DNA of 64,000 nucleotides from the IMG/VR virus record IMGVR_UViG_3300045988_150395, positions 26,614 through 90,613 of that record, one strand, 5' to 3'. The notes under the pieces are model-generated. The model saw only the letters and a program-made list of their open reading frames with translations, did not search any database and was not told the DNA's origin. Every line of letters begins with the position of its first letter. Within the stretch, counting starts at the first letter, position 1. The stretch comes from a virus. Positions 25,882 to 26,706 of this stretch are shown here, piece by piece. Both the position numbers and the translations under genes were made by a program.

Positions 25882-26706
25882 TTACTCCGCCTTTTCTTTT
25901 TTCTTTTCTAATTCCTTAAATACTTTTACTGCTTTCTGATAATTGTCGCCATGAATTGAATCTGGAATTGCATATATTATCTGTTTAAAATTCTTTCTTT
26001 CACTGGCAAGATATTTGTTGAATAAAGTAATAACTTCTGTTGCATCTTGACCAAATACACCACATCCAAAAGTTCCAAGAATAAGTGTATCTACCTGCTC
26101 TCTTGCGGCAATATCAAGAACAAATTTAATGCGGCTTTCCAAAATTTTGGAATTTTCTTCCGCAGTAATTCCATATCCATATTTTTTGTTTGGTGTAAGA
26201 TTTGGAGCCGCACAAGTAATTACATTAACAAACTCCTGGTCTTCTCCCTGTTCAAACATAATATGTGGTGAAAAAATAGCTCTATTTTCATACATTGCTC
26301 TATTAAGATGTTTATTATTCCAATCATAATAATAGTCAAATTCTCTTAATACATTGTATAAATAAGAACTTTGACATAAACACTCTTCTTGAGCTCTTGA
26401 GCCTTGAAGAAAGCCGCCACCTGGATTTTTATATGAAGCAAAGTTTAAAACACAAATCGTTCCATTACCAAAAGTTTTTCTTGCTTTAAAAATTGCTTCA
26501 ACGCTTCCAATATCCCATAAATATATTGGCATATTTTCACGGTATAAAGGATGCGGAACACGAGTATTTCCAGTATAAATATGACTGTTTTTTCTTGCAT
26601 AAGCAATATCTTCTTTGTATTTATGTGTCATATCTAAAGTTCTTTTTTTGGCAGTTTCTGCTCTGCCTTTGCGGTCTCCATCCCAGTAATATTTAATTCT
26701 GCCCAT
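25882..26706 (-). CDS. PARG-type macrodomain protein (ADP-ribose glycohydrolase-like)
   Basis: 274 aa; NPGGGFLQGSRAQEE is the GGG-x(6-8)-QEE catalytic signature of bacterial-type PARG (DUF2263). Confidence 0.7.
   Translation of the reverse strand: MGRIKYYWDGDRKGRAETAKKRTLDMTHKYKEDIAYARKNSHIYTGNTRVPHPLYRENMPIYLWDIGSVEAIFKARKTFGNGTICVLNFASYKNPGGGFLQGSRAQEECLCQSSYLYNVLREFDYYYDWNNKHLNRAMYENRAIFSPHIMFEQGEDQEFVNVITCAAPNLTPNKKYGYGITAEENSKILESRIKFVLDIAAREQVDTLILGTFGCGVFGQDATEVITLFNKYLASERKNFKQIIYAIPDSIHGDNYQKAVKVFKELEKKKEKAE

Follow-up and report, generated by a model that had tools for sequence, protein, structure and literature searches.

The 64,000-nucleotide stretch of viral DNA analysed here (positions 26,614 to 90,613 of the IMG/VR record IMGVR_UViG_3300045988_150395, referred to below as the window) encodes a poly(ADP-ribose) glycohydrolase (PARG) which, by every sequence and fold criterion applied, is assigned to the bacterial type, and not to the canonical eukaryotic PARGs or to the MacroD- or DarG-type macrodomains. 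The enzyme is predicted from its residues and its model to be catalytically competent and active-looking, and its gene is localised in a neighbourhood with the gene content of an RNA-repair cassette as catalogued for jumbo phages (PMC7824862, PMC9503650). The function proposed for the phage PARG is that of an RNA de-ADP-ribosylase serving phage tRNA and RNA repair, a reading which we consider evenly poised between right and wrong.

The gene is an ATG-to-TAA open reading frame (ORF) which spans positions 25882-26706 exactly on the minus strand, with 274 codons for 274 amino acids; the plus-strand frame over the same positions is full of stops. Its start is well placed, since a GGAG Shine-Dalgarno sequence lies ~8 nucleotides 5' of the ATG and the N-terminus MGRIKYYW is kept in the PARG homologues. 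The protein matches the Pfam family PF10021 (PARG_cat_microb; Microbial-type PARG, catalytic domain) with an E value of 3.8e-28 (99.1 bits against a cut-off of 23.5) and the NCBIfam family TIGR02452 with an E value of 3.7e-55 (187.3 bits against a cut-off of 50, residues 30-256 of 274). The canonical eukaryotic-type family PF05028 gave no Pfam match at E<=1, no match to the Pfam Macro family was found in the protein, and a scan against the PHROGs assigned it to no family, the PARG family being without a PHROG model. Among all PDB sequences, the sole phmmer matches were the PARGs of Deinococcus radiodurans (DrPARG) and Thermomonospora curvata (TcPARG), at ~1e-21, with DrPARG the best sequence match among the solved structures (E 9e-22 as a single sequence, 8e-38 with a profile).

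A first-pass annotation of the window had placed the protein among the DUF2263/PARG-type enzymes on the strength of a GGG-x-QEE signature, an assignment which is borne out by PF10021, TIGR02452, the PDB matches, residue conservation and Foldseek. The peptide quoted in that annotation, NFASYKNPGGGFLQGSRAQEE, corresponds to residues 88-108 (window positions 26383-26445) and contains the PARG signature GGG-X6-8-QEE with its two consecutive glutamates, as G96-G97-G98, seven residues and Q106-E107-E108; this loop aligns with the QEE of DrPARG and TcPARG. The annotation had also named assignment to a non-catalytic macro family without the QEE context as the outcome that would speak against it, and this is not what the profile search returned. 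The diphosphate-binding loop has its counterpart in the DrPARG loop which holds Cys225 (PMC6445106). Across 21 homologues, down to 45% identity, the residues N88, F89, S91, G96, G97, Q106, E107 and E108 are invariant, as are the ITCAAPN strand and G214, C215, G216 and F218.

An AlphaFold2 model built on 21 homologues (pLDDT 89, pTM 0.89) shows helices at residues 4-40 preceding the macro core. The best Foldseek match of the model is TcPARG, with a template modelling (TM) score of 0.83, an E value of 4e-19 and a root-mean-square deviation of 2.2 A over about 279 columns, while DrPARG is matched with a TM score of about 0.75-0.8 (E 6e-17). Other macrodomains appear at E values of about 1e-6, ~12 orders of magnitude later, with TM scores <0.5; structures of MacroD2, viral macro and macroH2A domains reach TM 0.4-0.5 at about 13% identity, and the Tetrahymena PARG 4EPP is a remote fold match only (TM 0.44). 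In TcPARG, a ribose cap (Arg268-Asp261) restricts the enzyme to the exo-glycohydrolase mode (PMC6445106). In the corresponding region of the phage PARG, Asp249 aligns with DrPARG Asp260, where the hidden Markov model (HMM) alignments stop; ungapped extension puts Tyr256, beside the invariant Asn255, at the Arg268/Thr267 position, with no basic residue there, and the model has a continuous C-terminal helix across residues 249-273. Exo-only behaviour is thus not to be assumed for the phage enzyme, as the Arg268/Asp261 pair of TcPARG is not evidently conserved.

The PARG gene is tightly packed between genes for RNA enzymes (Table 1). The end of the upstream YqeY gene overlaps the PARG start by 14 nucleotides, the ATG of the exonuclease gene lies 4 nucleotides past the PARG stop, and the RNA ligase gene begins 15 nucleotides beyond the exonuclease gene. 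PARG is probably translationally coupled to its neighbours, and its co-transcription with YqeY, the DEDD exonuclease and the RNA ligase is predicted. Two strong terminator-like hairpins on the coding strand bracket the stretch from the nucleotidyltransferase (NTase) to the ligase (30.2-23.25 kb), and 8 terminator-like sites were found in all against 2.3 expected; the promoter scan did no better than chance (43 sites, expectation 42.9). The Pfam RNA_ligase and PHA02142 matches of the ligase are weak and below the cut-off, and the same ligase architecture was called in the relatives L004, L006 and L008. In phmmer comparisons with the PDB, no matches were obtained for the RNA ligase, the kinase or the 267-amino-acid NTase; the NTase is possibly of the RNA-ligase-associated RlaP type (PMC7824862). 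The kinase and its two metallophosphoesterases lie downstream of PARG, past the lower hairpin, and the components of a healing-and-sealing system, namely an RNA ligase, a 5'-kinase and a 3'-phosphoesterase, are thus found together on one strand. No KptA/Tpt1, PARP or other ADP-ribosyltransferase (ART) was detected in the window, either with Pfam on the ORFs of >=100 amino acids or with a six-frame search using a KptA HMM built from stand-alone KptAs; a MacroD-type partner for PARG was likewise not found there.

Table 1. Coordinates of the PARG gene, its active-site loops and neighbouring features in the window
Feature	Position	Strand	Basis and remarks
PARG, bacterial-type poly(ADP-ribose) glycohydrolase; macrodomain + N-terminal helical extension	25882..26706	-	PF10021, TIGR02452, AlphaFold2, Foldseek
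Catalytic loop N88-F-A-S-Y-K-N-P-G96-G-G98-x7-Q106-E107-E108	26383..26445	-	Read from sequence; PARG signature GGG-X6-8-QEE
Diphosphate-binding loop G214-C-G-V-F218-G219 (G-x-G-x-F)	26050..26067	-	Aligns with DrPARG 'GAWGCGVF'
YqeY/GatB-like protein	26693..27160	-	PF09424 E 8e-18; phrog_1460; upstream of PARG
DEDD (RNase_T-type) 3'-5' exonuclease	25045..25878	-	PF00929 E 2e-15
RNA ligase with N-terminal PHA02142-type OB domain	23641..25029	-	phrog_968 'RNA ligase' E 1.3e-64
T7 gp5.9 RecBCD-inhibitor family protein, 82 amino acids	27751-27999	-	PF25708 E 2.8e-9; same terminator-bounded unit as PARG
Calcineurin-like metallophosphoesterase	28236..28994	-	PF00149 E 1e-12; phrog_1649
Pol-beta-type nucleotidyltransferase	28987..29790	-	phrog_388 E 2.4e-13; weak Polbeta Pfam match
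Terminator-like hairpin, 16-bp stem, strong	30186..30220	-	Putative upstream boundary of the PARG transcription unit
HD phosphohydrolase	30225..30644	-	PF01966 E 1e-5; phrog_990 E 2e-17; just beyond the upstream hairpin
Terminator-like hairpin, 14-bp stem	23247..23279	-	After the RNA ligase and a 113-amino-acid ORF; putative unit end
Polynucleotide-kinase-like P-loop kinase	20250-20777	-	AAA_33 E 2e-18; phrog_505 'polynucleotide kinase' E 4e-18
Two metallophosphoesterases flanking the kinase	19709-20287, 21116-21796	-	Metallophos
DUF2828/DUF7788 protein, 'TROVE-like'	35047..36672	-	Pfam E 1.7e-40 and 3.3e-27; phrog_850 E 3.7e-130; PHROG 'RNA-binding protein'
24-tRNA array	36673..54862	-	ARAGORN; upstream of PARG, same strand

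Relatives of the phage PARG are numerous and recur in similar surroundings. A database search with a threshold of E<=1e-10 returned 4848 PARG homologues, and contigs of 170-330 kb account for many of the top matches; 188 IMG/VR viral contigs hold a PARG relative. Related contigs of 178-184 kb include P0002 and IMGVR_UViG_3300045988_135203. In three relatives (50-57% identity, on contigs of 184-333 kb), inspected through precomputed Pfam labels, PARG, Thg1, Metallophos, cREC, RNase_T, YAcAr, RNA ligase and YqeY all share one strand, and DUF2828 and tRNA arrays are encoded upstream of them. Same-strand tRNA arrays are likewise localised upstream of PARG in the loci L004, L009, L015, L078 and L083 and in phage G. 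The clusters of L004, L006 and L008/L009 additionally hold Thg1-like 3'-5' polymerases, cREC_REC and YAcAr (SLOG) and, as these are missing from the corresponding stretch of the window, the cassette is modular between lineages. For counts of the neighbouring genes, ORFs were called in 89 loci, which were dereplicated at 85% PARG identity to 19 lineages, and the neighbour families were detected with iterative HMMs and counted within 10 kb of PARG. A metallophosphatase is present in 12 of the 19 lineages, an RNA ligase and an NTase in ten each, YqeY, a kinase, DUF2828 and HD in eight each, Thg1 in six, RNase_T in five and an MVP-like protein in three. The random expectation for a single ligase gene in a ~180 kb genome is roughly 11%. 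In phage G (JN638751.1), the PARG homologue is the unannotated gp114 (66154-66984, or 7950-8780 of locus L090; 30% identity, E 4e-27), whose gene follows a tRNA cluster at a distance of 5-8 kb; gp122, a MacroD-type protein labelled 'Appr-1-p processing domain', is encoded 4 kb downstream of it.

The nearest cellular homologues, at 44-51% identity, derive from Lachnospiraceae, Acetatifactor, Clostridia and Oscillospiraceae, which suggests, as far as sequence relationships indicate, a gut Firmicutes/Lachnospiraceae host range for the phage. In a rough neighbour-joining tree the phage and Firmicutes PARGs are interleaved in a star-like topology, with the window copy in a phage-only subclade, a pattern which would imply repeated PARG exchange between phages and Firmicutes. 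The commonest close neighbour of the bacterial PARG is the RNA 2'-phosphotransferase KptA/Tpt1 (PF01885, E 9e-47), which is encoded adjacent to PARG in nine bacterial loci (L095, L096, L100, L112, L122, L127, L128, L169 and L162). KptA-PARG fusions, of which no description was found in the literature searched, are encoded in four metagenome-assembled genome (MAG) proteins of Myxococcota (L157, L168, L170 and L161); in L170 (Kofleriaceae, 459 amino acids, 9224-10603), KptA occupies residues 4-178 and PARG residues 220-458. In the Acetatifactor MAG L095, a P-loop kinase, Thg1, PARG and KptA occur in series, and a STAND-like ATPase and a TPR protein are encoded immediately upstream of the series. 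The KptA-PARG pairs and fusions connect the family with the NAD+-dependent chemistry of RNA ends.

The substrates proposed for the phage enzyme are taken from the literature. Bacterial-type PARGs remove ADP-ribose (ADPr) from the 2'-OH of RNA (Lu et al. 2025, PMC11833690), efficiently clear ADPr from the 5'-phosphate RNA and DNA ends made by Tpt1/KptA and protect cells from an RNA-ADP-ribosylating toxin, and the RNA 2'-OH-ADPr linkage is chemically identical to the ribose-ribose bond of poly(ADP-ribose) (PAR) (PMC11833690). DrPARG itself is encoded in a ligase-PARG-HD/PNK operon, for which an aprataxin-like role in end repair has been proposed (PMC11833690). In the phage, the macrodomain cleft would bind the ADP-ribose moiety, with the GCGVFG loop holding the diphosphate, and Glu107 and Glu108 would cleave the bond at the ADP-ribose C1'', freeing ADP-ribose. 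The substrate would be RNA with ADPr on the ribose 2'-OH (1''-2' O-glycosidic, as in PAR) or on a terminal 5' or 3' phosphate. Through this activity the enzyme may unblock tRNA or other RNA which has been ADP-ribosylated by host RNA-targeting ARTs, or the dead-end products of KptA/Tpt1, after which the kinase and phosphatases would heal the ends, the exonuclease, NTase or Thg1 would trim or extend them and the ligase would seal the RNA, by analogy with the clearing of AMP-blocked ends by aprataxin. The family, fold, gene packing, neighbourhood and KptA linkage are observed, while the action on RNA in vivo and the adduct which is removed are what we infer. Protein, DNA and RNA had all been considered as substrates in the first-pass annotation; RNA is favoured by the gene context and by the published activities (PMC11833690), and the other classes found no evidence here. 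A more specific proposal, which is put forward only tentatively, is that large gut-Firmicutes phages carry a dedicated RNA de-ADP-ribosylase in a tRNA-repair operon, either reversing host ADP-ribosylation of tRNA or other RNA (2'-OH adducts made by RhsP2-like or defence-associated ARTs) or uncapping ADPr-blocked 5'-phosphate ends, which would allow cleaved tRNAs to be resealed by the phage ligase.

Several observations weigh against a role in RNA repair. No KptA, PARP or other ART that could supply the adduct was detected in the window. KptA is encoded on 349 IMG/VR phage contigs, and PARG was found within 6 kb in 0/80 of the phage KptA loci (the best 80 of the 349); among the matches listed, two contigs hold both genes, 7 kb and about 24 kb apart. 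Nine of the 19 lineages are without a nearby ligase, though some of the loci are short, and the phages in which the linkage occurs are related and share part of their gene order, so that the ten in 19 are not ten independent events. Such phages also cluster many accessory genes. With the HMMs, no ligase was detected within 12 kb of PARG in Lak-A1/B6, LR756502, phage G or MT835651, in the last of which a metallophosphatase adjoins PARG. Among the bacterial PARG loci, a phage-type RNA ligase is present in 1/80, and this single locus probably stems from a phage contig included in the bin. The linkage of PARG to RNA repair is lineage-specific, not universal.

Alternatively, the phage PARG may degrade PAR chains which a host PARP-like enzyme, or a phage ART encoded beyond the window, has made on proteins, and so blunt a stress or defence response or recycle ADP-ribose, which we regard as rather unlikely. 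The founding activity of the family, shown for TcPARG, HaPARG and DrPARG, is PAR hydrolysis (PMC8120803, PMC6445106); Clostridia/Lachnospiraceae provide the closest cellular homologues, sets of PARP, PARG and MacroD are reported for C. difficile and Butyrivibrio proteoclasticus (PMC8120803), and the MacroD-type gene 4 kb from the PARG homologue of phage G would fit a 'hydrolase duo'. However, the window has no detected PARP or ART to supply the polymer, and PARG is surrounded by genes for RNA enzymes instead of genes for DNA damage or protein modification. Furthermore, as DrPARG is unable to remove the protein-proximal mono-ADPr (PMC6445106), PARG by itself would leave the modification of proteins incompletely reversed, and the MacroD-type partner is likewise undetected in the window. 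The enzyme may also hydrolyse small molecules, namely the ADPr-1''-phosphate or ADPr-1'',2''-cyclic phosphate which arises in KptA reactions, O-acetyl-ADPr or the 1''-2' glycocyclic ADPR (gcADPR) of Thoeris, thereby detoxifying them, feeding NAD+ salvage or quenching immune signalling. Against such a role, the processing of ADPr-1''-phosphate is classically a MacroD/Poa1-type activity. In its favour, the ribose-ribose bond of 1''-2' gcADPR matches the PAR linkage, the adjacency or fusion with KptA fits by-product processing as well as adduct removal, the phage encodes an NAD-dependent DNA ligase, and cREC and YAcAr (SLOG), which are linked to the processing of ADPr derivatives, occur in the cluster of the relatives. 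Jumbo-phage macro domains have, in addition, been predicted to degrade ADPr-derived signals and KptA by-products (PMC7824862, PMC9503650). A role of this kind is nevertheless unlikely, as the literature searches returned no published PARG-type activity on these molecules and no mention of PARG in the Thoeris and gcADPR work, and the available part of PMC13232231 assigns the degradation of gcADPR to a different family, the RyR-domain proteins.

A role in stripping ADPr from bases of phage DNA on which DarT-like toxins have acted, as had been suggested in the first-pass annotation, is highly improbable. Phages do carry orphan hydrolases against DarTG, according to the available part of PMC11825919, and PARGs remove ADPr from terminal DNA phosphates in vitro (PMC8501950, PMC11833690). 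The base linkages are reportedly reversed by other enzymes, however, thymidine-linked ADPr being specific to the TARG1/DarG-type macrodomains, which are non-redundant with PARG (PMC8501950), and guanosine-linked ADPr being reversed only by NADARs (PMC11833690), and the phage protein is clearly PARG-type, with the next-best folds at TM <0.5. Given these reported specificities, the anti-DarT suggestion is not sustained. PARG may, finally, be a passenger which a Firmicutes host donated recently and which lies in a hypervariable accessory region by chance, functionally unconnected to its neighbours. The interleaving of phage and Firmicutes PARGs in the star-like tree and the differences in neighbourhood composition between lineages are compatible with such an origin, which is nonetheless improbable in view of the catalytic residues, all invariant in homologues down to 45% identity, and of the occurrence of PARG on 188 IMG/VR contigs, in Lak and in phage G. 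The reading frames overlap or abut those of the neighbours, and linkages with ligase, kinase, KptA and Thg1 occur independently in bacteria (PMC11833690), which argues for selection and functional coupling.

The window as a whole was confirmed to be part of a large phage. All of its genes are encoded on one strand, with a guanine-cytosine content of about 32%, and the phage origin claimed in the first-pass annotation is upheld by the 24 tRNA genes (ARAGORN), the endolysin/tail lysozyme, the homing endonucleases, the T7 gp5.9-like protein and the 188 IMG/VR contigs with a relative. NlpC/P60+SH3 lysins, GIY-YIG and HNH endonucleases, gyrase, an NAD-dependent ligase and a sigma-70 factor are also encoded. 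No match was obtained when 12 kb of the window was compared with the INPHARED phages by megablast, and there is thus no close relative among the deposited phage genomes. The 18-kb tRNA array is stated to cover 18 of the 20 amino acids; tRNAs for Asn, Gly and Val are missing from the window, and one member of the array is an unusual tRNA-Ile(tat). Within the array are encoded an HNH (48147-48722) and a GIY-YIG (39178-39747) endonuclease, an AAA ATPase (42114-43250) and a full-length four-region sigma-70 (49641-50549). The gyrB gene (9798-12820, minus strand) is apparently interrupted by a GIY-YIG homing-endonuclease ORF (10374-11084), which separates the GyrB N-terminus with Toprim (11267-12820) from the GyrB C-terminal domain (9798-10220), with gyrA (7448-9829) directly downstream of the latter. 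The NAD-dependent DNA ligase carries a BRCT domain (5333-7291, minus strand), and the phage therefore needs NAD+. A PIN-PhoH fusion (15988-17235) and an SPFH/flotillin protein of 513 amino acids (18127-19668) are likewise encoded on the minus strand, and SPFH occurs near PARG in 6/19 lineages.

An MVP-like protein of 825 amino acids (30744-33221, minus strand; MVP_shoulder E 1.1e-20, Vault_3 E 7.8e-8) is encoded in the window, and a 443-amino-acid ORF without a Pfam or PHROG match (33342-34673, minus strand) lies between its gene and that of the DUF2828 protein. A speculative link with eukaryotic vaults, which carry a PARP, had been raised in the first-pass annotation on account of the MVP and TROVE genes. 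The vault analogy was rejected as an explanation for PARG, as an MVP-like protein is encoded near PARG in only 3/19 lineages and no PARP, ART or KptA was detected in the window. The TROVE-like DUF2828, which co-occurs with PARG in 8/19 lineages, more plausibly belongs to the RNA-repair/tRNA region.

The PARG family, its RNA activities and the frequency of macro domains in big phages are already known. In reviews on ADP-ribosylation in bacteria and viruses (PMC8120803) and in the surveys by the Aravind group, macro domains are reported for 56% of jumbo phages and a KptA-2H-Macro route is described in RNA repair; PARG-type enzymes in phages are not singled out there, and no paper describing a phage PARG was found in the literature searches. 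The activity of the bacterial-type PARGs on ADPr-RNA was demonstrated only in 2025. The widespread phage PARG clade (188 IMG/VR contigs, Lak megaphages and phage G), in a cassette of RNA ligase, kinase, phosphatases and Thg1 by tRNA arrays, together with the bacterial KptA-PARG fusions and operons, offers a testable setting for the removal of ADPr blocks in RNA repair or for counter-defence, as well as compact enzymes for RNA-ADPr biochemistry. If the tentative proposal of a dedicated enzyme in a tRNA-repair operon is correct, phages and hosts would be actively in conflict over RNA ADP-ribosylation and the phage PARG would be the first phage counter-measure against it; the KptA-PARG fusions would represent a cellular writer/eraser, or proofreading, pair for ADPr-RNA. 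The findings also suggest that the integrity of tRNA may be contested between gut Lachnospiraceae and their phages by means of NAD+-dependent chemistry.

Phage hydrolases which undo nucleic-acid ADP-ribosylation have been proposed or shown before, in the orphan DarG-like antitoxins of T4-like phages and the NADAR of T4 (PMC11833690 and the available part of PMC11825919). The DarG/TARG1-type macrodomains and NADARs act on thymidine or guanosine bases, whereas the PARG type cleaves 1''-2' O-glycosidic and phosphate-linked ADPr. Homologues of the PARG family itself are encoded by huge phages, namely the Prevotella Lak megaphages, Bacillus phage G (gp114) and LR756502/LR756511, and align across about 90% of the length with 30-40% identity; the records give them no annotation or list them as hypothetical, and the hosts are different ones (Prevotella, Bacillus). 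Among the closest cellular relatives of the phage PARG are the KptA-adjacent PARGs of Lachnospiraceae (45-47% identity); KptA-PARG pairs and fusions occur in Lachnospiraceae, Verrucomicrobiota and Myxococcota, whereas the window has no detected KptA. TcPARG (PDB 3SIG/3SIH), the DUF2263 prototype, shares the fold, the N-terminal helical extension and both loops with the phage PARG and is of similar length (277 against 274 amino acids), with an identity of only about 25%. It is a cellular enzyme, whereas the copy described here is phage-encoded, and its ribose-cap Arg268 has no Arg or Lys counterpart at the predicted position in the phage PARG, in which Asp249 aligns. DrPARG (DRB0099; PDB 5ZDA-5ZDG), like the phage gene, has a ligase and an end-healing enzyme of the kinase/phosphatase kind as genomic neighbours (PMC11833690), and its activities on 2'-OH-ADPr RNA and 5'-phosphate-ADPr ends provide the model for the mechanism proposed here. 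DrPARG is, however, cellular and DNA-damage-induced, and its operon is smaller than the phage cassette, which further encodes an exonuclease, YqeY, an NTase and several metallophosphatases, with Thg1 and cREC in relatives. The larger size of the phage cassette and its localisation beside a tRNA array point to RNA rather than DNA repair.

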